Part shown: piece by piece, positions 13,655-30,915 of the stretch | Layout of the letters: each line of letters starts with the position of its first letter | Numbering within the stretch: the first letter of the stretch is position 1 | DNA from: an uncultured Clostridia bacterium | Lineage (GTDB): Bacteria > Bacillota > Clostridia > Oscillospirales > Oscillospiraceae | NCBI GenBank assembly: GCA_947306975.1 | Contig: CAMZHU010000001.1 | Location: 1 to 44,492 of the forward strand | DNA length: 44,492 nucleotides | Direction: 5' to 3' | Translations under genes and position numbers: made by a program | The notes under the pieces: model-generated | Told to the model about the DNA's origin: nothing | Databases searched by the model: none | The model's input: only the letters and a program-made list of their open reading frames with translations

Positions 13655-13699
13655 CAAAAAAGCCCTGAAGCTGCATAGACTCAGCTTCAGGGCTTTTTT
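13655..13699 (-). terminator. Bidirectional-type terminator ending the long minus-strand gene string
   Basis: AAAAAAGCCCTGAAGCTG-catagact-CAGCTTCAGGGCTTTTTT, 10 nt after the ligase stop at 13709. A/T runs flank both sides. Confidence 0.7.
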
Positions 13700-13708
13700 G
13701 ACCTGTCA

Positions 13709-15468: not shown

Positions 15469-17094
15469 TTATTTATCGATATACGCTCCGAGGCCGCCCC
15501 ACTTTTCGTGGAAGATGCCCTCGTCCATCGTCTTGAGTTCGGGAGAGATCACAGGCTCAAATCCGATCCTGTCAAGAACATCCTTCTGGAGGTCTATGCC
15601 GGGCGCTATCTCAACAAGGGTCATCTTATGATCTATGAGACGGAAAACTGCGCGCTCAGTGACATAGAGGACTTCCTGATCCTCCGGAGTGTACTGGCCG
15701 GCAAACGTGATCTGACCGACTTTCTCCACAAACTTCTGTATCGTGCCTTCCTCGACTATCTCAAGCTTGCCGTCGCCGACTTTCAGTTTTGCCTTGCCCA
15801 TGAGCGTGCCGGCAAAAATGACTTTCGGGGTAGCGCGGGTGATATCGATGAATCCGCCGGGGCCGGTAAGCCTCTTGCCCATACGGCTGACGTTGTTGTT
15901 GCCGTCGCCGTCGGCTTCGCCGATGCCCAGGCATGTCAGGCTGAGGCCGCCGCCGCTTATAAGATCGAACATCTCGTTCTGTGTGATAATGGCCTCGGGA
16001 TTGTATGCGCTGCCGAAGCTCGGAAGCGCGGATGGTACGCCGCCCACCATTCCGCTCTCGGTGCTCATGACGACGTCATTGATGAAGCCTTCCTCCGCGA
16101 CGACCTTTGCCACGTCAGCCGGCATGCCGACGCCGAGGTTCACGAGGTCGCCTTTCTTGAGCTCCATCGCGACGCGGCGGCAGATGACCTTTCTCTCGTC
16201 AAACGGCAGCGGCTCGATGCTGTCGAGCGGGATGCGGATATGTCCAGAGTAAGAGGGCTCCCAGTATGTTCCCTCTGCCTGCCAGCACGATTTGGGATCC
16301 TTCGCCACTACGACGTAGTCGACGAGCACTCCGGGTATCTTTATATCCTTGGGATTGAGGGTCTCTTTCTTCGCGACGTATTCGACCTGTACTATAACGA
16401 TGCCTCCGCTGTTCTTGACCGCGGTCGCGACGGAGAAGCCCTCGTTAATAACGCTCTCATGAGCAAAAGAGATATTGCCGTTCTCATCGGCTATGGTACC
16501 TCTCAGGAGAGCAACGTCAGCCTTGAAAGAAGGATAGAACAGATACTCTTCGCCGTTGAACTCGACGAGTTTTACCAGTTCGTCCTTGGCGCATGCATTC
16601 ATACGGCCGCCTTCTACGCGCGGATCGACGAAAGTTCCGAGGCCCGTCTTCGTTATAAGTCCGGGACGGCCCGCGGCGATCTCACGCCAGAGATTGATGA
16701 TCACGCCCTGCGGGAGACAGTATGACTCGACCTGTTCCTTGCGTGCCAGGTCGCACATGGCGAATGCGCTGCCTATATGTGCGCTTGTCCATTTCGTCAC
16801 GAGGCCGGGTCCGGCTTCGCCGAAGCGGGATACGCCGCGGACGCCGTGATCGTTGTCGGGCTCTGGAAGTCTTGAACGCTCCCATCCGTCAAACTGGTTG
16901 CCATAGCCCCAGTCGCCCATGGCGCTGCCCTGCTTGAGGTTGAGATTGCACGGATGTCCGGTCTCGCGGAAGTTGTCTCTTATCGCGCAGGCAAGCTCTT
17001 CAGCCCAGCCTGAAAGGCCCATTCCGGCAAGACCAACTGTCGCTCCGTCCGGAATGAGGGCAGCCGCTTCTCTTGCTGTAATGAATTTTGCCAT
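15469..17094 (-). CDS. Acyl-CoA:carboxylate CoA-transferase, propionate CoA-transferase (Pct) family
   Basis: 541 aa, colinear by eye with C. propionicum Pct (GLITKTGLGTFVDPR, NSGGIVIVQVE, VLVDYVVV, TESGMVGGVP containing the catalytic Glu, GGFIDIT). Confidence 0.85.
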   Translation of the reverse strand: MAKFITAREAAALIPDGATVGLAGMGLSGWAEELACAIRDNFRETGHPCNLNLKQGSAMGDWGYGNQFDGWERSRLPEPDNDHGVRGVSRFGEAGPGLVTKWTSAHIGSAFAMCDLARKEQVESYCLPQGVIINLWREIAAGRPGLITKTGLGTFVDPRVEGGRMNACAKDELVKLVEFNGEEYLFYPSFKADVALLRGTIADENGNISFAHESVINEGFSVATAVKNSGGIVIVQVEYVAKKETLNPKDIKIPGVLVDYVVVAKDPKSCWQAEGTYWEPSYSGHIRIPLDSIEPLPFDERKVICRRVAMELKKGDLVNLGVGMPADVAKVVAEEGFINDVVMSTESGMVGGVPSALPSFGSAYNPEAIITQNEMFDLISGGGLSLTCLGIGEADGDGNNNVSRMGKRLTGPGGFIDITRATPKVIFAGTLMGKAKLKVGDGKLEIVEEGTIQKFVEKVGQITFAGQYTPEDQEVLYVTERAVFRLIDHKMTLVEIAPGIDLQKDVLDRIGFEPVISPELKTMDEGIFHEKWGGLGAYIDK

Positions 17095-17196
17095 ATGATT
17101 TCCTCCTTTGCCGCGTGGGGCGCGGTAATTCTACAACGGAGAAGACACCGTATAACAGGCGCCTTCTCCGTTCATGTTCACTCTATTAACCTGCGA

Positions 17197-17841
17197 TCAG
17201 GCCTTGCCGGTGAGTATCTCGGCAGCCTTATTGGCGCACGCAGCGGCGTCCTCGGTGTAATAGTCTGCACCGACTTCGTCGCAGAAGGCCTGTGTAACAG
17301 GCGCGCCGCCGATCATTATCGTAACTTTGTCGCGGATACCGGCATCCTTGATAGCCTCGATGACTTCGCCGATAGCCGGCATGGTGGTCGTAAGAAGAGC
17401 CGAGCAGAGCACGAGATCGCACTTCTCATTGATAGCGGTCTCAACGAACTTCTCCTTCGGAACGTCGACGCCGATGTCGATGACTTCGATATTCTTGCTC
17501 TCGACCATGAGACGGACCAGGTTCTTGCCGATATCGTGCAGGTCGCCTGCAACGGTTCCAAGAACGGCCTTGCCGATAGGCTCGTTGCCTTCAGCGTTAA
17601 GCATCGGCTTGATGAGAGCTGTACCTGTGTTCATGGCGCGCGCCGCTACGAGCACCTCAGGCACGAAAGCTTCATTACGGGTAAAACGGTCGCCCACGAT
17701 GCCCATTCCGTGGAGCAGTCCGTCATTCAGGATCTCCTGTGCGCTGCAGCCTTCCTCGATGGCCTTCGGCACGAGTTCCTTTATCAGCTTAGCTTTGCCT
17801 TTCTCTACTGCTGCGGAGATTTCTTCGATTGTAGTAGACAT
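17197..17841 (-). CDS. Methyltransferase-cognate corrinoid protein (MtaC/MtbC/OdmA type: B12-binding cap + Rossmann domain)
   Basis: 214 aa with GDLHDIGKN (DxHxxG), SALLTTT and IMIGGAPV. The N-terminal helical cap domain contains FVPEVLVAARAM. Confidence 0.9.
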   Translation of the reverse strand: MSTTIEEISAAVEKGKAKLIKELVPKAIEEGCSAQEILNDGLLHGMGIVGDRFTRNEAFVPEVLVAARAMNTGTALIKPMLNAEGNEPIGKAVLGTVAGDLHDIGKNLVRLMVESKNIEVIDIGVDVPKEKFVETAINEKCDLVLCSALLTTTMPAIGEVIEAIKDAGIRDKVTIMIGGAPVTQAFCDEVGADYYTEDAAACANKAAEILTGKA

Positions 17842-17901
17842 ATTTCTTCGTCTCCTTATCCACTTTGCGGCTTCTCAGCCTGTACTTTTTCTGACTCTAA
17901 T

Positions 17902-17930
17902 ATAATAACCTCAAAGGGTTTTCGTGTAAA
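17902..17930 (-). promoter_or_regulatory. Candidate internal promoter in front of the corrinoid gene (TTTACA-17-TATTAT)
   Basis: The minus strand reads TTTACAcgaaaaccctttgaggtTATTAT, within a 137-nt AT-rich spacer. Confidence 0.4.
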
Positions 17931-17978
17931 GTATTTTCTTTATATAATTGGTATTTATTTATTATTCTTTCCGTAAAT

Positions 17979-20015
17979 TTACAGGAGTTTCCCCCTGGCG
18001 CAGGCTGTCACGTCAGCGCCTATACGCGCAAGCCCGAAATCGGTGTCAAAGTCCTTTTTCTTGACCTCTACGGTCACGGTCACTTCACCCTTTGCGCCGC
18101 AGCGTTCAGCTTTCTTTGCTGCCCGCTCCTTAGCGATAACGGTAGCACGCCTGATCGCCATATCCAGATCGTCGAAAGCTTCTCTGTTTTCTCCGGATAT
18201 GAAGAAAATACCGTCATTCTCATCCGCTTTGGGCGTGATATAGTCGGCCTTAATATGCACGGTCTCGTACACGCATACGTTTCCGAGCACAGCGCCCAGT
18301 GCATTGGATACTCCTGAGTATTCAGAAACCCGCCATTCGGTATGAAGGGCTCTGGCCACATCGGGCAGGAATATATGTATAGGCGCGCCTGCGCCGAGAA
18401 GAACAGCGTCCGTTGAGAAGGTGTTCCTGAAAAAGCGCGTTTTCTCTTCGGATATCTCCTCTGCAAACGCCTGTTTGGCAAGTGTTTCTAGTTCCTTTGG
18501 CGCATAAGGCGACCGCTCCGTACCGTATGCGTCGCTCCAAAGCATCCTTACTATCTTACAGTACAGTTTTTCCTTAATCTGCCTGTATACCTCGTCGATA
18601 ATCCACTCCTGCTCCCTGCCGGTGGATCTGCTTATGAAACCAAGCGCAAGGCTCGCTGCGCGCTCGGCTGATCCGGATATCAGCTTTCCGTAGGCTCCGC
18701 ACGTCATATCACGAGCGTCGCCCCTGAGTATAAAAGCGTCTGTCGGCGTAAAACCGCAGCGCAGCACAGCTCCCAACTGTTCAAGACGTTCCGTACGCAC
18801 ACTGTATCTGTTAGTACCGATAGCACGCGCAAGCTGCAGCACGCTTTTCGGCCCTTCCCTCAGCGCTTCGCAGATCCTTCGGTCATCCTCTGAAAAACGT
18901 CTGTCTCCGTCGTCTATCTCTTTAAGCAGCAAGAAATGCTCGTAGAGAGCGACGGAACAGCCGTCATACCATTCCTCGGTGCTCTCAAGCTCCGGGAGCA
19001 CCTCCGGAAAACGGCTGGCAAGTATCGATACCGGCATGACGCGCCTGCTGTCGAGCGAAATTGAACGCCGGCTGTACCAAACGCGGCTGTCTCCGCCCAG
19101 GGCAAGAGTCTCGATGCTCACCCCGCGTACGAAGGTCTGCCATCCGGCCAGGCGTATCCCGTTCGCGTCGATCTTAGGACTGCCGTTTTTGATGATCGCC
19201 ATATCGCTCGTCGTGCCGCCCATGTCGATCACGACCGCCTGGCGTTCGCCGAAAAGTTCACCCGCTCCTTTAACGCTCGCAGTAGGCCCGCATACGAGGG
19301 TCTCTACAGGATAGCTGAGCGTGTATTCCTCGCTCACGAGTGAGCCGTCGCTCCGCATTATAAGTATCGGAAGGTTTATACCATCCTCTTCGAGGACGGC
19401 ATGGATGGCATCGAAAAACTCGGCTATGACCTTCGACATGCGCGCGTTCAGCAGCGCGCCTGCGCCGCGTTTTATAACGTTTACTTCCCTGAATATCTCA
19501 TATGAACACGTCACCGGGATGTCGGAAAAAGCAGCTATGCGCTCTGCGGCCTGCCGCTCGTAGAGCCCGTCGTTGGTCCTCGCACCGATCTGAGCCACTG
19601 CGATACCGTCGTAGTGCTTTGTGATGCTCGGCAGCATCCCGTCGAGCGCGGCCCAATCCGGTTCGATCCCCTTATCGGGATCTCCGTCGATAAAGCGCAT
19701 GAATTCCATGCCCTCAAAACCGTATGAGGACAGCGTCCACTCAACGGCAGCCTTGCTGGCGCCTATAAAGAGGAGGCAGATGTTCTCGCCTTTCTTTTCC
19801 ACGCAGGCGTTCGTGGCCAAAGTCGTCGATAACGAGATATATGAAGCCCCGTCTATAAGATCTCTCGGGAGCTGACGCAGGACCTCCCGTATTCCGATCT
19901 CAAGATCCTCATGGGTGGTCATCGCCTTCGCGTATGTCAGTATCCTGTGGTCTTCAAGGTCGTAGACGACAGCATCAGTCGAAGTGCTGCCTGTGTCTAT
20001 GCCGATTGCCGTCAT
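17979..20015 (-). CDS. Hydantoinase/oxoprolinase A (HyuA)-like ASKHA ATPase, solitary (no HyuB partner)
   Basis: 678 aa. ASKHA phosphate motifs IGIDTGSTSTDAV and VVIDMGGTTSDMA are present, and the length and architecture match HyuA-type subunits. There is no Cys cluster. The start lies 14 nt after the folC stop. Confidence 0.7.
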   Translation of the reverse strand: MTAIGIDTGSTSTDAVVYDLEDHRILTYAKAMTTHEDLEIGIREVLRQLPRDLIDGASYISLSTTLATNACVEKKGENICLLFIGASKAAVEWTLSSYGFEGMEFMRFIDGDPDKGIEPDWAALDGMLPSITKHYDGIAVAQIGARTNDGLYERQAAERIAAFSDIPVTCSYEIFREVNVIKRGAGALLNARMSKVIAEFFDAIHAVLEEDGINLPILIMRSDGSLVSEEYTLSYPVETLVCGPTASVKGAGELFGERQAVVIDMGGTTSDMAIIKNGSPKIDANGIRLAGWQTFVRGVSIETLALGGDSRVWYSRRSISLDSRRVMPVSILASRFPEVLPELESTEEWYDGCSVALYEHFLLLKEIDDGDRRFSEDDRRICEALREGPKSVLQLARAIGTNRYSVRTERLEQLGAVLRCGFTPTDAFILRGDARDMTCGAYGKLISGSAERAASLALGFISRSTGREQEWIIDEVYRQIKEKLYCKIVRMLWSDAYGTERSPYAPKELETLAKQAFAEEISEEKTRFFRNTFSTDAVLLGAGAPIHIFLPDVARALHTEWRVSEYSGVSNALGAVLGNVCVYETVHIKADYITPKADENDGIFFISGENREAFDDLDMAIRRATVIAKERAAKKAERCGAKGEVTVTVEVKKKDFDTDFGLARIGADVTACARGKLL

Positions 20016-20029: not shown

Positions 20030-21865
20030 TTATACTTGGTCATCAAACCTGTATACAGTCTCTTCTGTTACAACAGTTCCCGGCTTCACATCAGTGATCT
20101 CGCATGATGTCCTGTCGAGGTGCTGGGCCTCGAACGCCACACATACCGTCACTGCAGACGGGCATCTGACAAGGTAACGGTCATAGTATCCGCATCCGTG
20201 GCCGAGCCGGCCTCCGAAACCGTCGAATCCGACGCAAGGGACTATAACGGCGTCTATCTCTTCCGGAGGGATCAAATCGGAGCGTTCCTTCATCGGAGAC
20301 TTTATCCCGTACGCGCCCGTCACCCAGGCGTTCTCGTCACGAGGGATCATCGCTTCCATTTCTCCCCCGTCGCCGGTAACCGGATAGGCTATCCTTGCCC
20401 CGTTCCGGGCCGCATACCTGTCGAATCCGCCAACGTCCGCCTCTCCGCGGACCGCACAGTACGAGAGGATGGTCCTTGCCCCCTTGAGTTCCGGCATTTC
20501 CTCAAGCCTTTCACATATGCGTGCGCTGTACTCGCTGCGCTGTTCTTCTGTAAGCGCCAGACGGGCCGCGCTGCAGTTTTTTCTCTGCAGCTTTTTCAGC
20601 TTTCCCGGAAAAACGCTGCGCACGTGACCGGCCATATAAAGTGAGCCGAATGAGACGACCGGCACGCCGGTCTCCCCTGCCAGTTCGAGCGCTCTCTCTA
20701 CGCCGTCTTCTATGCTCTCGCAAGCTTCTGCCTCTGCTCCCCGTGATACTAGATACTTCGCAAGGTCGCCGCTTATGAGCCTGCGGGGACTGTCAGGGGT
20801 AACGCATACGAATCTGTCTGCGTAAGGCAGCATCAGGGACATTATGGTCTCATAATCCTTGTCCGCCAGAACGCCTGTGAGAAATATGACTTTTTTATCC
20901 GGCAGGAGCATGTCGAGGCTCTTCGTCAATGCCTCCGCGCACTGCGGGTTGTGTCCGCCGTCCAGGATAAACAGCGGATCACGGCTCAGCACTTCCATAC
21001 GCGCCGGCCACTGGACAGTGCGAAGTCCTTCATCAACAGCCATCTCGGGTATATCCCAGCCACGGTCACGCAGCGCCTCAGTTCCGGTCAGCACCAGTGC
21101 AGCGTTATGAAGCTGGTGCGGTCCCAAAAGAGAAAGCGAATACTCTCTGCCGTCCCATCTGAAACGCTGTCCGTCAAGGGTGTACCCAAGCGGCTCGAGC
21201 CGCGAGAAATCTACGCAGTACAGCGGGACTTCCATATCGGCGCAAACGCTTTTTACGACTTCGGTCACTTCGGGAGCCCCGTCGTAGCATACGCATGAAC
21301 AGCCGTTCTTGATGATCCCGGCTTTTGTGGAGGCGATCTCTTCTAGCGTGTTGCCGAGGTATTCGGTGTGCTCCAGACCAATATTCGTTATTACGGCAAG
21401 TTCAGGCGCGTCTATCGCGTTGGTCGAATCAAGTGCTCCGCCCATGCCAACCTCAAGGACGACGGCGTCGCAGTGTTCTTCACAGAAATACTGCATGGCT
21501 ATGGCCGTAACAAGTTCAAACTGACTGGGGTGATCCTCCATATGTTCGGCGATATTCATGACGCGCTCCGTAAGCTCCGCCAGCCTTCCGCCCGGTATAT
21601 CCCTGCCGTCTATCCTGATCCTCTCATTGAAGACCTGGATATACGGGGATGTATAGAGTCCGGTCCTGTAACCGGCCGCTCGAAGGATGGCGTCGAACAT
21701 GGCGCAGGAACTGCCTTTCCCGTTGCTCCCGGCAACGTGGATAAACTTCAACCTCTTCTGGGGATCCCCCAGCTGCGCAAGCAGTTCCTTTGTCCGTCCC
21801 AGCCCTAGACGGGTCGTGCTCCAGCCGTAATTCTCTATATAGGAAATCGCTTCCTGCTCAGTCAT
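20030..21865 (-). CDS. folC: Folylpolyglutamate synthase/dihydrofolate synthase fused to 5-formyltetrahydrofolate cyclo-ligase
   Basis: The N-terminal ~425 aa are FolC/Mur-ligase like (HVAGSNGKGS, ITNIGLEHTEYLG, DGGHNP). The C-terminal ~180 aa are MTHFS like (ILSYCAVRGEAD..., VPCVGFDGFGGRLGHGCGYYDRYL). The start overlaps the folT stop (ATGA). Confidence 0.85.
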   Translation of the reverse strand: MTEQEAISYIENYGWSTTRLGLGRTKELLAQLGDPQKRLKFIHVAGSNGKGSSCAMFDAILRAAGYRTGLYTSPYIQVFNERIRIDGRDIPGGRLAELTERVMNIAEHMEDHPSQFELVTAIAMQYFCEEHCDAVVLEVGMGGALDSTNAIDAPELAVITNIGLEHTEYLGNTLEEIASTKAGIIKNGCSCVCYDGAPEVTEVVKSVCADMEVPLYCVDFSRLEPLGYTLDGQRFRWDGREYSLSLLGPHQLHNAALVLTGTEALRDRGWDIPEMAVDEGLRTVQWPARMEVLSRDPLFILDGGHNPQCAEALTKSLDMLLPDKKVIFLTGVLADKDYETIMSLMLPYADRFVCVTPDSPRRLISGDLAKYLVSRGAEAEACESIEDGVERALELAGETGVPVVSFGSLYMAGHVRSVFPGKLKKLQRKNCSAARLALTEEQRSEYSARICERLEEMPELKGARTILSYCAVRGEADVGGFDRYAARNGARIAYPVTGDGGEMEAMIPRDENAWVTGAYGIKSPMKERSDLIPPEEIDAVIVPCVGFDGFGGRLGHGCGYYDRYLVRCPSAVTVCVAFEAQHLDRTSCEITDVKPGTVVTEETVYRFDDQV

Positions 21866-22377
21866 GTATGCGCTCTCTTTCCGATCTCGTGGATCACTTT
21901 AACGATTATGGGTATGAATATGAGCTGTACAGCCGTAAGTATGCCGGTCTGCGGCAGTCGCCCGACAAGCGTCGGCACATACGGCATCCCGTACAGCACT
22001 TTGAGCCAGTATGTGTTGAGTATCAGGCTCAGCACCCACTGCTGGATCACGACAGCGATCACTATGCGGACCATCGTCTGTTTATCGTGCAGCAACGAGC
22101 CGTAAAGCAGGCCCGTCAAAGCCGCTGTCACGGTGAAGCCTGGAAAATACGGTCCCACCGGGAAAATGAACGCGCCCAGTATATCGGCGAGTATCCCGAT
22201 GATCATTGCCGGGACAGGACCGAACATTACGCCCGCTATTACTATGGGGATGAAGTCAAGGCTGAGCTTGATCGTCTGAGTCGGTCTGAACGTTACAAAA
22301 TGCGCTATTACTACTTCGAGCGCTATAAGAACGCCCATTACTGCCAGCATCTTCGTACTGATTTTCTGCCTGTTCAT
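21862..22377 (-). CDS. folT: Folate ECF-transporter substrate-capture (S) component
   Basis: 171 aa from the ATG at 22377 (MNRQKISTKMLAVMGVLIALE...), with about 6 TM helices. AGGAG lies 8 nt upstream and a THF riboswitch precedes the gene. The ORF-track extension to 22554 runs through the riboswitch and is not coding. Confidence 0.8.
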   Translation of the reverse strand: MNRQKISTKMLAVMGVLIALEVVIAHFVTFRPTQTIKLSLDFIPIVIAGVMFGPVPAMIIGILADILGAFIFPVGPYFPGFTVTAALTGLLYGSLLHDKQTMVRIVIAVVIQQWVLSLILNTYWLKVLYGMPYVPTLVGRLPQTGILTAVQLIFIPIIVKVIHEIGKRAHT

Positions 22378-22380
22378 AGA

Positions 22381-22592
22381 AAAAACTCCTTTCGCGGCAG
22401 TAGCCACAAAAGGAGTTTTATCCGACGCTTTACCTCGTTCCCTCCCCGATCGGGCGGGAAACGGGTTTTCGCGAGGTATGTCCACCTTTAGTGGCAGCGG
22501 ATGCGGCTCCGGCACCGCAACGCGATGCGTTTTCGTCCAACGGCAACTTCCCATCCGCTGACACTTGACGCGCCGGAACCTACTCTACCTCT
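22381..22592 (-). promoter_or_regulatory. THF-I riboswitch (aptamer ~22493-22589) plus expression platform with an RBS-sequestering terminator hairpin (22381-22420)
   Basis: The minus strand reads GGUAGAGUAGGUUCCGGCGCGUCAAGUGUCAGCGGAUGGGAAGUUGCCGUUGGACGAAAACGCAUCGCGUUGCGGUGCCGGAGCCGCAUCCGCUGCC. It shares the conserved blocks AGAGUAG, GCGUnAAGUGU, AUGGGAnGU, ACGAA and GCAUCCGCU with the E. siraeum THF aptamer as I recall it. P1 (GGUAG/CUGCC) and P2 (GUUCCGGC/GCCGGAGC) can pair. Downstream, AAAACUCCUUU-N16-AAAGGAGUUUUUU ends 3 nt before the AUG. Confidence 0.85.
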
Positions 22593-22616: not shown

Positions 22617-23471
22617 TTACTTCGCCGCGCGTTTTGCGGCCTCGATAACATGCGAGACCAGCACGCTCGTAGTTACGTTGCCTACACCGCCGGGGACCGG
22701 GGTGATACTGGCAACTATGGGCTCTGCTTCTTCAAATTTAACGTCGCCGCAGAGCTTCTGTTTCTCCTCGTTCCATCCTATGCCGACATCGATCACTATC
22801 TGACCTTCGCGGAGATGCTCCGCCCCGATGCTCTCCATCTGGCCGGATGCTGCCACGACGATATCTGCGCCGCGTGTCTCAGCGGGGACATCCTTCGTTC
22901 GGGTATGGCAGATGGTTATCGTAGCGTTCTCATGCATGAGCATCATGGCTACGGGTCTGCCGATAACGAGCGATCTGCCGACTATCGTGACTCTCTTGCC
23001 CTTGGGGTCGATGCCGTAATAGTGCAGGATCTCCATCGCAGCCTGCGCAGTGCAGGGAGGGAATCCGCTGACCGTATTCGTGAACACGCCGGCGAGCGAG
23101 CCGTCCGTGCACCCGTCTACATCCTTCTCCGGGGCAAGGAGTTTGCGCGCCTTCTCGCCGTCAAGCTGTTTCGGGAGCGGCCGGAACATGAGTATGCCGT
23201 GCACGGAATCGTCCTTGTTCAGATCATCGAGCGTCTTGAAAAAAGTATCGCTGTCGACGTCGGCGGGAAGCACGACGTTCTTGACCTCCACGCCGACCTG
23301 GCCGCAGCGTTTCATAGCGCCGCGCTCATAACTCAGGTCGTCGTCGCGCTCTCCGACGCGGAGAATAGCCAGCGTCGGGATGACGCCGTTTTCTTTCAGC
23401 GCCGCGGCGTCGGCGGCCATCTTCTCATTAAGCGCGGCCGCTACCGGTGCGCCTTTCAGTAACTCTGCCAT
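22617..23471 (-). CDS. folD: Bifunctional 5,10-methylene-THF dehydrogenase / 5,10-methenyl-THF cyclohydrolase
   Basis: MAELLKGAPVAAAL..., GKRVTIVGRSLVIGRPVAMML, PVPGGVG. The ATG at 23471 overlaps the fchA stop (TGATG). The ORF track starts at a TTG at 23477. Confidence 0.9.
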   Translation of the reverse strand: MAELLKGAPVAAALNEKMAADAAALKENGVIPTLAILRVGERDDDLSYERGAMKRCGQVGVEVKNVVLPADVDSDTFFKTLDDLNKDDSVHGILMFRPLPKQLDGEKARKLLAPEKDVDGCTDGSLAGVFTNTVSGFPPCTAQAAMEILHYYGIDPKGKRVTIVGRSLVIGRPVAMMLMHENATITICHTRTKDVPAETRGADIVVAASGQMESIGAEHLREGQIVIDVGIGWNEEKQKLCGDVKFEEAEPIVASITPVPGGVGNVTTSVLVSHVIEAAKRAAK

Positions 23472-24088
23472 CAGCAAAACTCCCTGTATATCTCTTCGTA
23501 CGTCTCTTTCGCGATCGGCAGATACTTGCCCATCTGCCTGTCGACGTGAGCGTCGATCTTCGCCGCGTAATCGCGGTCCTTCATGGATTTCGTGTTTACC
23601 TTTACGTTGATTGCCGCGCCGCAGATCGCGCCGTAGCAGATTATTGCGCCGGTCGCTGCGTCGGAGAGGATGATCTTGCTTCCCTTTTTGCCGAACTCAC
23701 GGAGGACCTCGACGGCCTCACAGCAGAGGTCGAGCATTTCTACCGGGACAGCGGCTCCGTCCCTGAGGCACTTCTCCATTACTTCGTCGCGGGTGGGGTC
23801 ATCTTTCGGTATGCCGTATGCGCGGCTCAGAGGTTCGAACGCCGCAGCGTCCTTTTCTATGCATTCGAGGAGCTTAACGCGAAGATCCTGCGCTCTCGCC
23901 ATGAGAGCTTTTATTTCCTCTTCAACGTCGGCGTATTTTTTCTTGCCGACGGTAAACTCGCCGACCATATCTCCGAGCGCGACGCCGATCGCACCGACAA
24001 GAGCGCTTGCTCCGCCGCCGCCCGGTACGGACGACTTGGAGGCCAGCTGCTCGGTAAAACTGGTTACGCTGGATTCAAGAAGGTTCAT
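23471..24088 (-). CDS. fchA: Cyclodeaminase/cyclohydrolase-family protein (methenyl-THF cyclohydrolase type)
   Basis: 205 aa, all helical. The N-terminus FTEQLASKSSVPGGGGASALVGAIGVALGDMV is the hallmark of the formiminotransferase-cyclodeaminase C-domain / FchA family. Confidence 0.8.
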   Translation of the reverse strand: MNLLESSVTSFTEQLASKSSVPGGGGASALVGAIGVALGDMVGEFTVGKKKYADVEEEIKALMARAQDLRVKLLECIEKDAAAFEPLSRAYGIPKDDPTRDEVMEKCLRDGAAVPVEMLDLCCEAVEVLREFGKKGSKIILSDAATGAIICYGAICGAAINVKVNTKSMKDRDYAAKIDAHVDRQMGKYLPIAKETYEEIYREFC

Positions 24089-24172
24089 CTTAGCACCTCT
24101 CTATAGTACTTGCATAAAACGACACACGCCTCCGGACCGGATAGGTCCGGAGGACATGTTCATGTTAATAAG

Positions 24173-25171
24173 TCAGGCTCTGGCCTTTTTGATCTCTTCG
24201 GTGAGGACCGGAAGCACCTCGAAGAGGTTGCCGACGATACCGTAGTCCGCTACGTCAAAAATGGGAGCGTCGGGATCCTTGTTGATGGCGATTATGACAT
24301 CGCTGGAAGTCATACCGGCAAGATGCTGGATAGCGCCGGAGATGCCGCATGCGATGTAGAGCTTGGGACCGACGATCTTGCCGGTCTGGCCGACCTGATG
24401 CGCATGGGATATCCAGCCCGCATCGACAGCGGCGCGGGAAGCGCCGACGGTCGCACCGAGGACCTCCGCCAGCTCACGGATGGGTTCAAACCCTTCCGGT
24501 CCGCCGACGCCGCGGCCGCCGGATACGATTATATCCGCGCCTTCGAGGTCAACGTTCTCGCCGCCCATGTCCTTGATGACTTCGAGCACCTGCGTACGGA
24601 TAACGTCCGCAGCTGCGATCTCTTCCTTGATGATCTCGGCTTTCGCCTCGCCGGGTTCGCCCTTTTTGAAGGCGCCGGGACGGATGCTGCCTATCTGGGG
24701 CCTCTGCTCCGGGCAGGAGAGGACTTCCATGATGCTGCCGCCGTAGGCGGGGCGGGTCCACTCGATACTGCCGTCATCGCAGACGCCGAGAGCAGTGCAG
24801 TCGGACGCAAGGCCGGTCTTCAGACGGCATGCGACTACAGGAGCAAGTTCGCGTCCGTCGGGGGTGGCTCCGAGGAGGATAGTCGCCGGGCCGTATTTCT
24901 CGGCAAGCGACGCCAGGGCCTTGGCAAAAGCTTCAACGGTGAATTCCTTGTATTCCGGGCCGTCAACAACGATGACTTTATCAGCGCCGTACTCAGAGGC
25001 CGCCTTTACAGCCGCGTCGGCTCCGCAGCCGATCACGACGGCGACGAGAGCGCCGCCCTGCTTTCCGGCAAGCTCCTTGCCGGGTGTCAGCATCTCTATG
25101 CCGACGTTCTTCGCGGTGCCGTCCTCGTTAGTTTCTATAAATACCCACAGGTCTTTGGTCTTGGCTTCCAT
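24173..25171 (-). CDS. etfA: Electron transfer flavoprotein alpha subunit
   Basis: 332 aa with a C-terminal FAD domain ([43 protein letters not shown]). There is no N-terminal ferredoxin domain. Confidence 0.9.
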
Positions 25172-25190
25172 TTCTGTGTACCCCCTTCCC

Positions 25191-25994
25191 TCAGATAACG
25201 CGAGCGTCGCTCAGGAGAGCGAACAGCTTCTTCGCTGAATTCTCGTCGCTGTCTTCCTGTATCTTGATGCCGCTCTTGGATCTCTGCGGGACATAGGTCT
25301 TGATGACCTTTGTGGGAGATCCGGCAGCGCCAACTGCGGAAGCGTCGAGGCCGGCAAGATCGGCGCCGGTCAGTGTCGGGATCTGGGCGCGGTTTGCAGC
25401 CATCTTGCGCTTGATGGTGGGATAACGAGGATCCCATGAAGGCTTCGTGAATGTCACGAGGCAGGGGGTCTTCACGGCAACGACCTTAACGCCGCCGTCG
25501 ATCTCCTTGTTGACCTTGAGCGTCTCGCCCTCGTCAAAGGCCTCGAGGCCGTAGGTGACGAGAGGATAACCGAGATACTCGGCGAGCTGGGGGCCGACCT
25601 GGGCGGAATCGCCGTCGGTCGCCTGCTTGCCGCAGAATATGGCGTCGAACTTGCCCTCGGTCTCTTCGATCTTTTTAACTGCGCAGCAGAGGATATAAGC
25701 GGTAGCGAGAGTGTCGGAACCGTCAAAGGCGTCGTCGGAGATGAAATACGCTTTGTCCGCGGCGATGGCAAGACCTTCCTTAAGCGCCTTCTCCACGCCT
25801 GCGGCGCCGATGGTCACGAGAACAATCTTGGTATCGGGATCCTTGTCCTTGATGCGGGCAGCCGCCTCGAGTGCATAGCTGTCGAACGGGTTGATGATCT
25901 TCGGTACCTCGTCGGTGTTGAGGGTGTTTTTTGCGGGATCGGCTTTGAGCTCGGCCGGATCCGGAACCTGCTTGATGCAGACTAATATGTTCAT
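25191..25994 (-). CDS. etfB: Electron transfer flavoprotein beta subunit (bifurcating-type signature)
   Basis: MNILVCIKQVPD..., NPFDSYALEAA, CGKQATDGDSAQVGPQLAE. The last motif resembles, from recall, the A. fermentans EtfB motif GRQAIDGDTAQVGPEIAE. Confidence 0.9.
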   Translation of the reverse strand: MNILVCIKQVPDPAELKADPAKNTLNTDEVPKIINPFDSYALEAAARIKDKDPDTKIVLVTIGAAGVEKALKEGLAIAADKAYFISDDAFDGSDTLATAYILCCAVKKIEETEGKFDAIFCGKQATDGDSAQVGPQLAEYLGYPLVTYGLEAFDEGETLKVNKEIDGGVKVVAVKTPCLVTFTKPSWDPRYPTIKRKMAANRAQIPTLTGADLAGLDASAVGAAGSPTKVIKTYVPQRSKSGIKIQEDSDENSAKKLFALLSDARVI

Positions 25995-26117
25995 ATCGAT
26001 CCATCCTTCCTGTTTGTTATTGTCCGGTACGCCAGCCCCTCTGTACTGGACCGGGCCGGTCTATATGCCCGCGCCCGGCAGCAGCAACTGCGCCGGGTGC
26101 GGATAAGAGTCATTAGA

Positions 26118-26909
26118 TCATTTCCAGATCTCGCCGATGAGCGGATACTGGGTCTTGTAGCCGATGAGCGAGAGATAGAAACCGCACTGCGGATAATTCT
26201 TAACAAGCTCCTTCAGCGTTTCGATACCGTCGTAATTCGTGTCTGTCGGGATCTCGTAGCCGACTACGTCGGAGAGGAGATATGCCTTTTTGGACATCCA
26301 AGCCTCTGCGATCGTGGGGACCTCGGGATACTTGGCGAGCAACTGGTCAAAGACCTCGTTTTTGCCGAGTATCGGCTGGGTGATGATGAAGGTCGCGCCG
26401 GCGGCAAGCTTGCGCTCCATCTTTGCGAATTCAGCCTCGGGCGGCTCGTAGGGGTTGAATGCGACGCCGAGAACGAAATCGGGATAATTTGCTTTGATAT
26501 ACTTGCAGAGCTCGACGCTGGTGACAGTCACGCAATCGATGCCGATGTCCTTGGGCTCAAGCCTGGACATATCGGGAGCGCCGTCGCCGCTGACGACGAG
26601 GATGTACTTGATGCCGAGGTTCTGAGCGGTCGTGAGTATCTCGTCCAGATTGGCCTTGGAGTGGAAGGTGTTGAGGTGGAGCATGACCTGGTCGGGGTTT
26701 ACAGGCAGCTCGAGCTCGGAGATCATCTCAGTGCCCTGGAATGCCTTGCGGCCCATGGCGTTGTCGGTGAGGCAGATGCAGTATCCGTCTTCCATGACGC
26801 GGGTATACTTCTCAGCGAACTTCTCAAGATCGCCTTCGATGTCTTCGGTGTTCTGCTTCGGGGGGATTATCTCGATGTGATAGCGCTTGTCAAGAATATG
26901 ATTCTTCAT
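26118..26909 (-). CDS. Divergent short methylenetetrahydrofolate reductase (MetF/MTHFR)-like protein
   Basis: 263 aa. Colinear blocks against E. coli MetF: IEIIPP (FEFFPP, Glu kept), ICLTDNA (VSVTYGA), LHLNT (PHLTC), IKYILVVSGD (IRHIVALRGD, Asp kept), VAFNPYEPPEAE (VAAYPEVHPEA), AAGATFIITQP (DAGANRAITQF, Gln kept). No metV-like gene is nearby. Confidence 0.65.
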   Translation of the reverse strand: MKNHILDKRYHIEIIPPKQNTEDIEGDLEKFAEKYTRVMEDGYCICLTDNAMGRKAFQGTEMISELELPVNPDQVMLHLNTFHSKANLDEILTTAQNLGIKYILVVSGDGAPDMSRLEPKDIGIDCVTVTSVELCKYIKANYPDFVLGVAFNPYEPPEAEFAKMERKLAAGATFIITQPILGKNEVFDQLLAKYPEVPTIAEAWMSKKAYLLSDVVGYEIPTDTNYDGIETLKELVKNYPQCGFYLSLIGYKTQYPLIGEIWK

Positions 26910-26954: not shown

Positions 26955-28631
26955 TTAGAACAGGCCGCTGATAACGCCGTTCTCGTCAACGTCGATCTTC
27001 TCCGCAGCGGGTACCTTCGGCAGACCGGGCATCGTCATGATATCGCCTGTAAGAGCGACTATGAAACCTGCGCCAGCGCTGACCTTCAGGTTGCGGACAG
27101 CGATCCTGAAACCGGAAGGAGCTCCGAGCTTGGTCGGATCGTCGGAGAAGCTGTACTGGGTCTTGGCCATGCAGATGGGCATCTTGTCGTAGCCGAGCTC
27201 TTCGATCTCCTTGAGCTGCTTTACGGCATTGCCGACGAGATCTGCGCCGTCGGCGTGATAGACCTTGGTAGCGATTGCGTTGAGCTTGTCCATAACGGAC
27301 ATCTCTACGTCGTAGGACTGTTTGAAGGAGTTGGGCTGCTCGCAGAGGCGGACGACCTCCTCGGCAAGAGCCTTGCCGCCCTCGCCGCCCTTTGCCCAGA
27401 CTTCGGACAGAGCGACGTTGACGCCGAGTTCCTTGCACTTGTCTTCGACGAGTTTGAGCTCGGCAGCGGTGTCGGTCGGGAAAGCGTTAATGGCTACTAC
27501 GCAAGGTAGGCCGAAAACGTTTTTGATGTTGCTGACGTGCTGGAGCAGATTCGGAAGGCCCTTCTCAAGAGCAGCGAGGTTCTCACCGTTGAGCTCAGCC
27601 TTCGGTACGCCGCCGTGATACTTGAGAGCGCGTACTGTAGCGACGATGACGACCGCGGAGGGCGTGAGCCCTGCCATACGGCACTTTATGTCGAAGAACT
27701 TCTCAGCTCCGAGGTCAGCGGCGAAGCCGGCTTCGGTAACGGCGTAGTCGCCGATCTTAAGAGCCATCTTGGTAGCGGTAATGGAGTTGCAGCCGTGAGC
27801 TATGTTCGCGAACGGGCCGCCGTGGATGAGAGCGGGAGTGCCCTCGAGGGTCTGAACGAGGTTGGGCTTGAGAGCGTCCTTAAGGAGCGCTGCCATTGCG
27901 CCTTCGGCCTTGAGGTCGTGAGCCGTGACGGGCTTGCCTGCATAGGTATAGCCGACGATTATGCGGCCGAGGCGGGCCTTGAGGTCTGTTATATCAGAGG
28001 CAAGGCAGAGGACCGCCATGACCTCGCTGGCAACGGTGATCTCGAAACCGTCTTCACGTGGCACGCCCTGCATGCGTCCGCCGAGTCCGTCGACTATGTT
28101 GCGGAGCTGACGGTCGTTCATATCGACAGCGCGCTTCCAAGTAATGCGCTTGACATCGATGCCGAGAGCATTGCCCTGCTGGATGTGGTTGTCCAGCATT
28201 GCCGCAAGCAGGTTGTTGGCTGCGCCGATGGCATGGAAGTCACCGGTGAAATGGAGGTTTATATCCTCCATGGGAACGACCTGGGCGTAGCCGCCGCCGG
28301 CCGCACCGCCCTTGACTCCGAAAACGGGGCCGAGAGAAGGCTCGCGAAGCGCTACTATCGCGTTCTTGCCGATCTTGCGGAGACCGTCAGTCAGACCGAC
28401 GGATGTGGTCGTCTTGCCCTCTCCTGCAGGAGTGGGGGTTATTGCGGTGACAAGGATCAGCTTGCCGTCGGGACGATCGGACATATCCTTGAGGAAAGCA
28501 TAGTCGATCTTCGCCTTGTAGTTGCCGTACTGCTCGAGATACTTCTCGTCGATGCCGGCGGTCTTTGCGATCTCTGTTATTTTCTTTTTATTACAAGCCT
28601 GAGCTATTTCGATATCTGTCTTGATTTCCAT
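26955..28631 (-). CDS. fhs: Formate--tetrahydrofolate ligase
   Basis: 558 aa with [17 protein letters not shown], and FTHFS-like along its whole length. Confidence 0.95.
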
Positions 28632-28655: not shown

Positions 28656-29459
28656 TTACTTCTTCTGTACGCCGAACTTGTCGTCGTTGTAGGCCTCCAT
28701 GTACTCCATGCAGTACTCGTCCTCTTCCATGAGGACTTCGGTGGCGTACATAGCGCCGAGCATATCGCGGTTGGTCGGATCCATGATGGCGCTGTCCATG
28801 CCGAGGTAACGGGCGATGGTCAGGAAAGCCATGTTCATGGTCTTGCGGGACGGGATACCGAAGGAGATGTTGGAAAGTCCGCTTGTGATGTGGATGTCAG
28901 GATACGCGTTGCGGATGTACTTCGTTACAGCCGCGAATCCGGTGAATGCCTCGGGCTTGGTGCCCACGCTGAATACCAGCGGGTCGATGTGGAGGCGGGA
29001 CGGAGCTATGTTGTACTCCTTCGCCTTCACCATAAGTCTCTCAAAGATGGAGATACGCTCTTCAACGCCGTCGGGGATCTTGTTGCTGTCGCAGAGAAGC
29101 GCGACGCATTCCCACTTGGTGTCGGCTATGACAGGGAAAACCGTCTCGATCTTGTTGCCCTCGAGAGAAACGGAGTTGATGAGGCCGGGCTTTTTGCAGA
29201 ACGGCATGGCATCGACGATGCTCTGAGCGTTGGGGCTGTCGATGCAGATCTTCGCATCGCTTACTTCCTGTACCAGGTCGATGAGCCACTTCAGCGTCTC
29301 CACGTCCTTGTCGACGACTGACGAGCAGACGTCGATAAAGTCCGCGCCGCCCTCGGTCTGACGGATTGCGAGATCGCGGATCCAGTCCTCGTTCTTCTCT
29401 GCTATTGCCTTTGCTACGGAGGGGATAGCGCCGTTGATTTTTTCGCCGATGATGATCAT
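28656..29459 (-). CDS. Methyl-corrinoid:tetrahydrofolate methyltransferase (pterin-binding DHPS-like barrel, MT-II type)
   Basis: 267 aa. MIIIGEKING, GGADFIDVC, GLINSVSLEG and TSGLSNISFG are the pterin-binding-domain blocks seen in AcsE/MtrH/MetH-type and demethylase MT-II proteins. Confidence 0.8.
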   Translation of the reverse strand: MIIIGEKINGAIPSVAKAIAEKNEDWIRDLAIRQTEGGADFIDVCSSVVDKDVETLKWLIDLVQEVSDAKICIDSPNAQSIVDAMPFCKKPGLINSVSLEGNKIETVFPVIADTKWECVALLCDSNKIPDGVEERISIFERLMVKAKEYNIAPSRLHIDPLVFSVGTKPEAFTGFAAVTKYIRNAYPDIHITSGLSNISFGIPSRKTMNMAFLTIARYLGMDSAIMDPTNRDMLGAMYATEVLMEEDEYCMEYMEAYNDDKFGVQKK

Positions 29460-29592
29460 TTTGGTTTTCTCCTTTCAGTCTTATACGCGGTTCCCTGCTG
29501 CCCCCGGAAAACCGGTCAGGTCCACGGTTATATCTTTATGAACACATTCTAATTATTAAGCGCATGAGTTTCTTGTAAAACTATAATAAAAG

Positions 29593-29667: not shown

Positions 29668-30915
29668 ATGGAATCTCATCTTTTCCTGTACTTTCCCAAG
29701 AGAGACCTGGAACTCATTCTGGACGCGCTGCACTCCTGCGTGGGCCTGTACATACAGCTGATCGACGATACCGGTAACCAGCTGCTTGCCTACGGCGAGC
29801 CTGCCTCCTACTGCACACTGGCAGGATCCTGCCTCCCTGACGGCAGTTCCTGCAGAAGCGAACATGTAGAAGCCGCAAAACGCGCCATCGAACTCGGTGA
29901 ACCTTACGTTTTCTGCTGCTCGTCCGGTCTCTACCATATCTCCTACCCCATCGTCAACAGAGAGCGCATGTTCGGTTCCGTCCTGATTGGGCCGTTCCTC
30001 ATGGACGGCACCGACGAGGATCTGATCAAGTACCTTGCCAGTACTACCGAGATACCCACGGACACGGTCCTGGAACTTTACAAGAGCTCTCAATCCATCA
30101 AGGAATTATCTCCCGAAGAAGTAGTCAAGGTGAGCCGGCTCCTCTACTATCTCGTGAACAGTCTCATATCCGGAAGCCGCGAACTCCTGAAGGCAAACAG
30201 GGACAGGCAGCTCCACCAGTCGAAGGTCGGCGAATCCATACGCCGCTACAAACAGCAGGATCCCTCGATTTGGAAAACATATCCTTTCGAGAAAGAGCGC
30301 ATACTTCTTTCCGAAACACGGGCCGGAAATGTCGAAGGAGCCCGCACTGCGTTCGACGAGTATCTCGCTCACCTCGTCCAGTATGAAAAATACGATACTG
30401 AGAATTTGAAATTCAGGCTCATCGAGCTATGCTCTCTCCTGTCCCGGGCTTCGATAGAGCGCGGAGCCGACGAGACCGTCATACTGGAACTCAACAAACA
30501 CCTCATTCAGAACATCCTAAGTTCCTATAACATCAACGAGATAACTTACCGTCTGCACGAGAATCTCGACGTATTCACGGAAAGTCTTTTCTTTACATCT
30601 GACAAAAACAACAAACTCGTAAAACGCGCGACCGAATACGTACATGACCATTCCGCGGAAAAGATCTCTCTTTCGAACGTAGCGAAAACCCTCGGGGTAA
30701 CCTCTCCGTATCTCTCCATGCTCTTCAAACACGTTACCGGTCTCACCTTCCGCGACTACCTGAACAAGGTCCGCGTCGAGGAGGCAAAGCGTCTTCTTAT
30801 AAGCACGGACTATCAGATCATGGAGATAGCAGTCGCATGCGGGTTCAACGACCAGAGCTATTTCACCAAAGTATTCAAAAAATATACCGGCCTTTCGCCG
30901 AGGAGCTTTCGCTGA
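29668..30915 (+). CDS. AraC-family transcriptional regulator with N-terminal PocR sensory domain
   Basis: The N-terminus is PocR-like (LDALHSCVGLYIQLIDDTGNQL...EPYVFCCSSGLYHISYPI...GSVLIGPFLM). The C-terminus carries a double HTH (SLSNVAKTLGVTSPYLSMLFK; IMEIAVACGFNDQSYFTKVFKKYTGLSPRSFR). Confidence 0.85.
   Translation: MESHLFLYFPKRDLELILDALHSCVGLYIQLIDDTGNQLLAYGEPASYCTLAGSCLPDGSSCRSEHVEAAKRAIELGEPYVFCCSSGLYHISYPIVNRERMFGSVLIGPFLMDGTDEDLIKYLASTTEIPTDTVLELYKSSQSIKELSPEEVVKVSRLLYYLVNSLISGSRELLKANRDRQLHQSKVGESIRRYKQQDPSIWKTYPFEKERILLSETRAGNVEGARTAFDEYLAHLVQYEKYDTENLKFRLIELCSLLSRASIERGADETVILELNKHLIQNILSSYNINEITYRLHENLDVFTESLFFTSDKNNKLVKRATEYVHDHSAEKISLSNVAKTLGVTSPYLSMLFKHVTGLTFRDYLNKVRVEEAKRLLISTDYQIMEIAVACGFNDQSYFTKVFKKYTGLSPRSFR

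Follow-up and report, generated by a model that had tools for sequence, protein, structure and literature searches.

A MetF-like protein family in conserved synteny with bifurcating-type EtfAB: a candidate Etf-dependent methylene-tetrahydrofolate reductase

Why would a short, divergent relative of methylene-tetrahydrofolate reductase (MTHFR) be encoded directly upstream of both subunits of an electron-transferring flavoprotein (Etf)? This question is raised by a locus on contig CAMZHU010000001.1 (assembly GCA_947306975.1) of an uncultured Clostridia bacterium of the Oscillospiraceae, of which a stretch of 44,492 nt was analysed, hereafter the window. An earlier note on this DNA had proposed the MetF-like protein, here termed MetFL, and EtfAB as a candidate Etf-dependent MTHFR. 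All three genes are real, with the lengths described there, and the distance of 123 nt between the first two was confirmed:

26118..26909, minus strand: MetFL (MetF-like), 263 aa; Pfam MTHFR PF02219
25995..26117, minus strand: spacer between MetFL and etfB, 123 nt, with the ribosome-binding site AGGAAGG before etfB; sequence read directly
25191..25994, minus strand: EtfB, 267 aa, bifurcating type; best matches in the Protein Data Bank (PDB) are bifurcating Etfs
24173..25171, minus strand: EtfA, 332 aa, with ETF and ETF_alpha FAD domain; Pfam

Comparative genomics, i.e., synteny, co-variation and the EtfB motif, supports a dedicated functional partnership of these proteins, and MetFL and EtfAB are very probably dedicated redox partners. 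With fair confidence, we regard MetFL as a flavoprotein MTHFR which exchanges electrons with EtfAB, probably within a complex that bifurcates or confurcates reversibly between NAD(H) and ferredoxin.

Conservation of the MetFL-etfB-etfA gene order

How often the MetFL clade neighbours etfBA, a point which the earlier note had left to a survey, was determined in one genome per GTDB species. Due to the possibility that the 421 matches include canonical anaerobe-type MetFs having the same search peptide, only the best 80, which are 54-81% identical to MetFL, were used. Nine further loci were added by exact protein look-up, and in 74 loci altogether the sequence downstream of MetFL extended over at least 2.2 kb. 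All but one of these 74 (73 loci) have etfB and etfA directly 3' of MetFL on the same strand. Carriers are recorded as members of the Oscillospiraceae, Saccharofermentanales, Ruminiclostridium, Treponema/Breznakiellaceae and other spirochaetes, Lentisphaerales/PVC, Erysipelotrichaceae, and Limnochordia. The MetFL and etfB genes overlap by 4 nt in 20 out of 84 cases, and most other gaps measure 10-40 nt. The surroundings of the triad differ completely between lineages, and no MetV (MTHFR_C, PF12225) was found among the recurrent neighbour clusters of 85 loci.

In the reciprocal direction, metagenome contigs were searched with an EtfB of the main clade, and loci were counted only if they included enough upstream DNA. 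Where EtfB identity to the query was 65% or more, MetFL is situated directly upstream in each of the 37 loci; below 61% identity, it is so in none of 26. The main-clade Etf occurs only with MetFL (37 out of 37 cases), and with no butyryl-CoA dehydrogenase (Bcd) nearby. Pairwise distances co-vary between MetFL and EtfB (r = 0.81) and between MetFL and EtfA (r = 0.82; Mantel p = 0.001), compared to 0.88 for EtfB and EtfA. The pairing of MetFL and EtfAB is not a product of chance. A cultured carrier with a complete genome is Clostridium thermosuccinogenes (MetFL AUS96928.1).

Sequence and fold of MetFL

MetFL matches the Pfam family MTHFR PF02219 with an E-value of 8.7e-17, and its scores with the NCBIfam MetF models are far below the cut-offs. 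The catalytic Glu, Asp, and Gln are retained, as the earlier note had it: Glu13, Asp109, and Gln178 align with Glu28, Asp120, and Gln183 of E. coli MetF, and none of them varies among 17 diverse and 31 close members of the family. The family is narrow, with proteins of about 265 aa in 921 clusters at 90% identity and about 15 full-length clusters at 50%; E-values are no worse than 1e-30 inside the family and no better than about 5e-8 to canonical MetFs. Its nearest canonical relatives are anaerobe-type MetFs as in the MetFV enzymes.

The protein had also been described as lacking the C-terminal region, and profile alignments (the single sequence as well as a 31-sequence profile against solved structures) do cover residues 1-188 only. 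A C-terminal truncation, as suggested by these alignments, is ruled out by an AlphaFold (AF2) model and by a fold search with it. The model (pLDDT 84, pTM 0.85) comprises all eight beta-strands of a full (beta/alpha)8 barrel, and its top Foldseek matches are the whole MTHFR barrels 8UY1, 6FNU, and 5UME (E 1e-12 to 1e-10, TM 0.65-0.74), at an identity of only 12-22%. A MAFFT alignment with anaerobe-type MetFs indicates homology across the full length of MetFL. MetFL is shorter because it has no N-terminal extension and carries a deletion of about 18 residues after the GYEIP motif, where an 18-residue helical segment is missing.

The beta2 loop of MetFL bears the anaerobe-type signature (T/S-D-N/x-P): its residues T48-D49-N50 line up with the VTDNP/VSDLP motifs found in anaerobe MetFs, and with the TYG of the E. 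coli protein. Asn50 aligns with Gly61 of E. coli; in the MTHFR of Sphingobium lignivorans SYK-6 (S6MTHFR), NAD(H) binding is blocked by a side chain at this site (PMC11868366). His78 corresponds in the alignment to the His beside flavin N5 (role of the His: PMC3156243), and the G-D loop is conserved. No Cys motif of the Fe-S type occurs in the MetFL sequence. Specific to the family is the beta4-alpha4 loop LxPxDxG (residues 117-123), which may serve as a contact in a complex with the Etf.

PDB 3IJD (Cthe_2304), an uncharacterised protein of Clostridium thermocellum whose crystal structure holds two 5-methyl-tetrahydrofolate (methyl-THF) molecules, is also among the fold matches of MetFL. It may represent another orphan MTHFR-like family in anaerobes.

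The Etf subunits are of the bifurcating type

The bifurcating-type peptide reported earlier for EtfB is present as residues 121-139, CGKQATDGDSAQVGPQLAE, encoded by window positions 25578-25634 on the minus strand, and includes the beta-FAD-type motif GKQATDGDSAQVGP. All 84 linked EtfBs carry G[KR]QA[IV]DGDTAQVGP or a one-residue variant of it. Motifs of the type DGD(T/S)AQVGP reportedly define the group 2 (two-FAD) Etfs, in which they replace the canonical AMP-site motif; FMN-type MetFs are likewise said to have a motif of their own.

Both subunits are nearest to solved bifurcating Etfs. EtfB matches 4KPU (Acidaminococcus fermentans), 6FAH (CarDE), 7KOE (Thermotoga), 5OL2 (Clostridioides difficile), and 7QH2 (LctBC) with E-values of 4e-55 to 5e-45, compared to about 1e-27 for canonical ETFs. 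In case of EtfA, values are 3e-93 to 4e-66 for bifurcating and 2e-53 for canonical proteins, with CarE (3e-93), 7KOE, 4KPU, and 5OL2 as best matches. EtfA is devoid of an N-terminal ferredoxin domain, as in Bcd-type Etfs, and its alignment with CarE begins at CarE residue 69.

Replacement of the Etf in the lineage of the window

The window MetFL is about 62% identical to main-clade MetFLs (68% within that clade), whereas its EtfB and EtfA share only 38% and 43% with main-clade Etfs (within-clade values: 69% and 64%). A neighbour-joining tree places the window EtfB with those of loci L007 and L093 of our survey among Oscillospiraceae EtfBs from thl-hbd-crt-etfBA-bcd clusters, and the window protein is 65-70% identical to the EtfBs of these butyrate clusters. 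The window EtfAB is thus a Bcd-type bifurcating Etf that replaces the dedicated Etf of the family, and the form of the module seen in the window is atypical. In the species-level relatives whose MetFL is closest (81% identity; L010, L090-092), the order is MT-Fhs-MetFL-FchA-FolD (MT, methyltransferase) without etf genes, with a gap of 3 nt between MetFL and fchA. The simplest history would be a loss of the dedicated Etf in this sub-lineage of the Oscillospiraceae, service of MetFL by a Bcd-type Etf encoded elsewhere, and placement of a copy of the latter beside MetFL. That another bifurcating Etf was recruited to restore the same arrangement speaks for a functional need.

GC-rich hairpins flank etfBA on the minus strand (24089-24172 and 25995-26117), of which only 24089-24172 is highly significant (z -4.8). 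Together with the lack of etfBA in the closest relatives, the flanking hairpins suggest that etfBA entered the site as a cassette. The spacer 25995..26117 folds no better than its shuffles (z -1.3) and contains no terminator-like site on the minus strand.

A Bcd-type etfBA 66% identical to that of the window also occurs in L095-L097 (5592-8820), directly 3' of genes for a dihydrolipoamide-dehydrogenase-like protein and for an E1/E2 set of a 2-oxoacid dehydrogenase, which may be another unusual Etf context. In L007, a group I intron match (18625-18931, minus strand, 82 bits) lies among small unannotated open reading frames (ORFs) beside an integrase gene, in a prophage-like region.

Proposed mechanism and comparison with known systems

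MetFL would act as a flavin-dependent methylene-THF reductase or methyl-THF dehydrogenase that lacks a site for pyridine nucleotides as well as an Fe-S partner of its own. Such a flavoprotein needs a protein redox partner, and the alpha-FAD domain of an Etf is the obvious candidate. In a physical complex, the flavin of MetFL would exchange electrons with the alpha-FAD of the adjoining two-FAD EtfAB, similar to lactate dehydrogenase-EtfAB, and the overall reaction would read CH3-THF + reduced ferredoxin + 2 NAD+ <-> CH2-THF + oxidised ferredoxin + 2 NADH. We lean slightly towards a ferredoxin-linked bifurcation or confurcation as the mode of coupling.

The potential of the NAD+/NADH couple is -320 mV. 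For CH2-THF/CH3-THF, E0' is about -200 mV (PMC5861303), and for ferredoxin about -450 to -500 mV (PMC10734219, PMC9232219). Based on published potentials, the oxidation of methyl-THF with NAD+ alone would amount to about +23 kJ/mol and the confurcating reaction to about -2 to -12 kJ/mol, which places the latter close to equilibrium and makes it reversible.

The best functional analogue is LctBCD, the lactate dehydrogenase-EtfAB of Acetobacterium woodii (7QH2). As in the window, a bifurcating-type EtfAB is encoded beside the flavoenzyme, and the couple of about -190 mV is nearly equal to the about -200 mV of methylene-/methyl-THF (PMC9232219). Lactate oxidation with NAD+ only is endergonic and is driven by co-oxidised reduced ferredoxin, the enzyme working mainly in the confurcating mode (PMC9232219). 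The clients differ, a TIM-barrel MTHFR homologue here and a FAD-linked oxidase of the VAO/PCMH type there; moreover, LctC needs its N-terminal [4Fe-4S] ferredoxin domain, which the window EtfA lacks, and the MetFL system is known from its genes. The window Etf belongs to the lineage of Bcd-EtfAB of A. fermentans and C. difficile (4KPU, 5OL2), which has subunits of similar size and likewise no ferredoxin domain, with an acyl-CoA dehydrogenase as client instead of MetFL. Since the acceptor couple of MetFL is about 190 mV more negative than that of Bcd-EtfAB, the reaction would be near equilibrium and not strongly exergonic.

MTHFRs of the MetFV type comprise 2S (C. ljungdahlii), 3S (A. woodii MetFV-RnfC2), and 6S enzymes (M. 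thermoacetica MetFV-HdrABC-MvhD) as well as an 'X' type with NuoEFG, and make no direct use of NAD(P)H (PMC8515935). MetFL shares with them the T-D-N motif (T-Y-G in E. coli) and the principle of a catalytic barrel with a separate electron-input module. It differs by the lack of MetV, by EtfAB in place of Fe-S, Hdr, or RnfC modules, and by its position in a separate narrow clade. In agreement with the earlier note, the window encodes no MetV, Hdr, MvhD, or RnfC. The type-4 S6MTHFR is also genetically coupled to demethylation; it oxidises CH3-THF and binds no NAD(H), and its acceptor is unidentified (PMC11868366). This enzyme is aerobic, E. coli-like in sequence, and has no linked Etf, with signature motifs in loop beta2-alpha3, helix alpha8, and loop beta8-alpha11 (PMC11868366). 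It works with the THF-dependent demethylases LigM/DesA, whereas MetFL is linked to a corrinoid-dependent methyltransferase II (MT2). The mycobacterial Mfr is flavin-free, transfers hydride directly from NADH, and uses a Glu elsewhere in place of Asp120, in contrast to MetFL with its Asp in the G-D loop (PMC11094777).

Published MTHFR types are the eukaryotic and E. coli-type enzymes, MetFV 2S/3S/6S, the proposed NuoEFG 'X' type, Mfr, and type 4 (PMC8515935, PMC11868366, PMC11094777). Catalogues of bifurcation list Bcd, CarC, Ldh, and FixCX as Etf clients (PMC5861303, PMC6085437), and none of the 12 catalogued enzyme types of flavin-based electron bifurcation pairs MetF with Etf (PMC6085437, PMC5861303). 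MetFL is co-localised with and co-evolves with its Etf as clients do, and belongs to none of these four families. A coupling of EtfAB and MTHFR was once hypothesised for C. ljungdahlii (PMC8515935) and judged unlikely because every etf set had another neighbour and none was linked to metF (PMC8515935). As presumed in the earlier note, no description of such a complex, of a metF-etfBA module, or of an Etf-type MTHFR was found in the full-text literature, most subscription journals being outside the search. MetFL-EtfAB is a new combination of known modules.

Gene content of the window and direction of the reaction

The triad is part of a long string of genes on the minus strand, bounded probably by a promoter-like site (29579-29552) at its start and by a strong terminator-like hairpin (13700-13655) at its end. 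Its features and the divergent regulator gene are, in the order of transcription of the string:

29668..30915, plus strand: PocR-sensor/AraC-type regulator, divergent from the operon; Pfam PocR and HTH_18/HTH_AraC
29552..29579, minus strand: promoter-like site TTTACA-16-AATAAT 5' of the methyltransferase gene; consensus scan, 10/12 matches
28656..29459, minus strand: methyl-THF:corrinoid methyltransferase (pterin-binding, MT2-type); Pfam Pterin_bind, NCBIfam NF005719 with 326 bits, above cut-off
26955..28631, minus strand: Fhs, formate-tetrahydrofolate ligase; Pfam FTHFS (E 5e-276), NCBIfam equivalog above cut-off
24173..26909, minus strand: MetFL, EtfB, and EtfA, as above
24089..24172, minus strand: stable hairpin followed by a U-rich stretch, directly 3' of etfA; RNA fold
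23471..24088, minus strand: FchA, methenyl-THF cyclohydrolase; Pfam FTCD_C (4.5e-58), match to the NCBIfam FchA model
22617..23471, minus strand: FolD, methylene-THF dehydrogenase/cyclohydrolase; Pfam THF_DHG_CYH and THF_DHG_CYH_C
22493..22589, minus strand: THF riboswitch 5' of folT; Rfam RF01831, 88.3 bits (gathering score 36)
21862..22377, minus strand: FolT, S component of a folate ECF transporter; NCBIfam TIGR04518 above cut-off
20030..21865, minus strand: FolC fused to 5-formyl-THF cyclo-ligase; Pfam Mur_ligase_M/C and 5-FTHF_cyc-lig, TIGR01499, TIGR02727
17979..20015, minus strand: hydantoinase/MutL(GlmL)-like ASKHA ATPase, 678 aa; Pfam Hydantoinase_A, Hydant_A_N, MutL
17197..17841, minus strand: corrinoid protein, 214 aa, B12-binding_2 and B12-binding; Pfam
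15469-17094, minus strand: CoA-transferase; Pfam
13709-15340, minus strand: AMP-dependent ligase; Pfam
13655..13700, minus strand: intrinsic-terminator-like hairpin closing the gene string, 19-pair stem and T-run; terminator scan

The promoter-like site is a consensus match only, and the region has no more such sites than shuffled sequence. The hairpin after etfA (-34.9 kcal/mol, z -4.8), which none of 200 shuffles equals in folding, is possibly an attenuator, a terminator, or an mRNA-stabilising element. FolD likely starts with the ATG at 23471; its orthologue in L179 has 284 aa. For folT, Met60 (22377) of the listed ORF 21862-22554 was taken as start, because the longer ORF runs through the THF riboswitch; the FolT orthologue in L179 comprises 171 aa. 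The genes folT-folC are a riboswitch-gated sub-unit within the string, and no riboswitch other than the THF riboswitch before folT was detected in the window. The earlier note had described an operon made of C1-THF enzymes only. These genes are present, but so are those of the MT2, the corrinoid protein, the ATPase, FolT, the FolC/cyclo-ligase, the CoA-transferase, and the AMP-ligase.

The nearest homologues come from metagenome-assembled genomes (MAGs) of uncultured Oscillospiraceae. In the close relative L179/L180, the gene order is exactly as in the window, including the corrinoid protein at the same position, and the same divergent PocR/AraC regulator was found in the relatives L007, L092, L093, and L179. 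The fusion of FolC and 5-formyl-THF cyclo-ligase is a single protein of 611 aa, kept in L179/L180. In ORF lists, the corrinoid gene is masked by a longer plus-strand ORF (17095-17976, 293 aa, without family match), which is probably spurious. The ASKHA ATPase gene adjoins that of the corrinoid protein, and homologues are situated near MetFL-etfBA in the spirochaete loci L054 (4947-6926), L057 (1404-3095), and L073 (10661-12466); other loci have a RACo-type activase instead. This ATPase may be considered as a candidate alternative activase or chaperone of corrinoid proteins. A second B12-dependent function is encoded on the plus strand at 9267-11195, with no evident link to the operon, by an ORF of 642 aa with a glutamate-mutase E-chain domain (Met_asp_mut_E, E 3e-136) fused to a B12-binding domain.

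Among the 74 surveyed loci, recurrent neighbours of the triad are a pterin methyltransferase (47 loci), Fhs (28), and a channel of the formate/nitrite family (13), besides FolD, FchA, a corrinoid protein, a RACo-type activase, a URO-D-type methyltransferase, and CobW. Due to the spurious antisense ORFs which six-frame calling gave in GC-rich loci (clusters c7-c9, c11, c17, and c25 were disregarded as such), these counts are lower bounds. In a Caldicoprobacterales MAG, the triad is followed by a methyltransferase, a formate channel, and Fhs.

The only step missing between FolD and the MT2/corrinoid pair in the window operon is the MTHFR step, which MetFL supplies. Several features favour methyl oxidation in the window. 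The methyltransferase is far nearer to O-demethylase MT2 than to MeTr/AcsE or MetH: its best PDB match is the D. hafniense enzyme (4O0Q/4O1E, 1.4e-92, full length), compared to about 1e-36 for MeTr/AcsE and about 1e-19 for MetH. This match to the methyltransferase II of D. hafniense DCB-2 points to a transfer from methyl-corrinoid to THF that would feed MetFL; the likeness concerns the window methyltransferase gene only, and the reaction is reversible. The corrinoid protein resembles those of methyltransferase systems (1Y80 of Moorella with 1e-51 as best match, followed by methylamine corrinoid proteins and 4JGI), the PocR/AraC regulator suggests induction, and the remaining steps to formate, with one ATP, are covered by FolD, FchA, and Fhs. 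In such a pathway, the O-demethylase-type MT2 would pass corrinoid-bound methyl groups to THF, MetFL-EtfAB would oxidise methyl-THF, and FolD, FchA, and Fhs would carry the carbon to formate, yielding one ATP. We give a narrow preference to the oxidative direction in the window.

Counter-evidence and alternative explanations

Several observations speak against the proposed complex or its direction. Every member of the MetFL system is known from genes alone. Flavin binding cannot be read from the MetFL sequence, and the column of E. coli Phe223 holds a Lys in a poorly aligned region, so that no Phe223 equivalent is identifiable; the nearly invariant Trp204/Met205 could stand in for this folate-stacking residue. 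Three relatives lack an adjacent etfBA, namely the closest species-level relative (L010, L090-092), L015, and L068. A substrate-specific MT1 methyltransferase is not encoded in the window, and a two-FAD Etf need not bifurcate, as exemplified by the C. propionicum enzyme (PMC9232219). With respect to direction, the triad of the saccharolytic C. thermosuccinogenes stands by itself between glycoside-hydrolase and sporulation genes, in a context of sugar utilisation. L093 (6315-13416) combines DUF2284, a homocysteine S-methyltransferase, PocR/AraC, a pterin methyltransferase, MetFL, EtfB, EtfA, and a corrinoid protein; its separate genes look like all three methionine-synthase modules, i.e., a split methionine synthase. 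In L024 (4959-10647), metN-metI-metQ are under the control of a SAM riboswitch (92 bits), and some 250-300 nt downstream of metQ, on the same strand, MetFL-etfB-etfA begins. These three contexts fit a biosynthetic, reductive role.

They also suit a non-bifurcating Etf-dependent MTHFR, in which electrons would pass from NADH via beta-FAD, alpha-FAD, and the flavin of MetFL to CH2-THF without ferredoxin, mainly to provide methyl-THF for methionine synthesis in anaerobes without an E. coli-type MetF. Forward and reciprocal synteny fit this explanation equally, and the acryloyl-CoA reductase of C. propionicum has a two-FAD Etf which oxidises NADH without bifurcation despite its 'bifurcating' sequence type (PMC9232219); sub-threshold NCBIfam matches of the window Etf to acryloyl-CoA reductase Etf subunits were obtained as well. 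By length and alignment alone, the window EtfA (332 aa) aligns end to end with EtfA of A. fermentans and C. difficile, and matches the acryloyl-CoA reductase EtfA model of 360 positions as two separate stretches only. The C. propionicum enzyme has an extra insertion that is thought to block ferredoxin binding. Furthermore, only about 4 of 90 loci have a homocysteine-binding module near the triad, where MT2, Fhs, and the formate channel are common, and the retention of a beta-FAD-type EtfB across phyla is left unexplained by mere NADH oxidation. When the window and 13 loci were searched for methionine and B12 riboswitches 5' of the triad, only the SAM riboswitch before metNIQ in L024 was found, and neither a SAM riboswitch nor a Met T-box is situated directly upstream in 13 other sources. 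We consider this alternative to bifurcation unlikely, though it has to be taken seriously.

For the lineage of the window, the Bcd-type EtfAB might be an electron conduit through which a Bcd encoded elsewhere reduces crotonyl-CoA at the expense of methyl-THF (-200 mV), like the Ldh-ETF-Bcd chain of Fusobacterium nucleatum, with ferredoxin/NADH cycling or uninvolved. The affinity of the window EtfB to those of the butyrate clusters, the CoA-transferase and acyl-CoA ligase genes downstream on the same strand, and the demonstrated chain from lactate to crotonyl-CoA via one ETF (PMC12630350) are in agreement with such a role. However, the ETF of F. nucleatum is canonical and binds AMP, unlike the window Etf, and the main-clade Etf was observed with MetFL only. 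As the earlier note had stated, neither an acyl-CoA dehydrogenase nor a FAD-linked lactate dehydrogenase is encoded in the window. Altogether, a conduit is improbable.

Still less probable is that MetFL is not a flavin MTHFR but a flavin-free, Mfr-like reductase, a folate-binding protein, or an enzyme of another pterin, with an Etf that serves something else. The low identity to the structural matches, the weak NCBIfam MetF scores, and the presence of flavin-free Mfr and 3IJD among the fold matches leave some room for it. On the other hand, flavin-dependent MTHFRs outrank Mfr in the fold search, and MetFL keeps its Asp in the canonical G-D position, in contrast to Mfr with a Glu at a different site (PMC11094777). 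In addition, no other client would be left for the dedicated, co-evolving Etf, and the operon would be devoid of an MTHFR step.

A chance or merely operonic adjacency of functionally unlinked genes, for which the 123-nt spacer and the etfBA-free site of L090-092 could be quoted, is effectively refuted by the synteny survey, with its near-universal linkage in both directions, frequent start/stop overlaps, and co-varying distances.

Implications

The linkage of MetFL and etfBA is near-obligatory, natural, and widespread; a close relative of MetFL (at least 54% identity) is encoded in at least 80 species-representative genomes. The linkage touches two open issues, namely the energy conservation in methylene-THF reduction and the drive for the reverse step on methyl compounds, which is endergonic with NAD+. 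A direct test is possible in the cultured C. thermosuccinogenes.

It is tempting to speculate, at about even chances, that MetFL-EtfAB represents a fifth Etf-based bifurcating/confurcating class and a new MTHFR type, by which non-acetogens oxidise corrinoid-delivered methyl groups to formate. The hosts would be non-acetogenic fermenters of the rumen, termite gut, digesters, and sediments, in which co-oxidised reduced ferredoxin would make the uphill conversion of methyl-THF to methylene-THF feasible, with a gain of one ATP at Fhs. In the reverse direction, methylene-THF reduction would conserve energy as reduced ferredoxin. If true, Etf-based bifurcation would gain a new class of clients and the MTHFRs a new type, and the metabolic reconstructions of many gut and digester MAGs, in which annotations of the gene read 'NADPH MTHFR' or 'hypothetical', would have to be revised.

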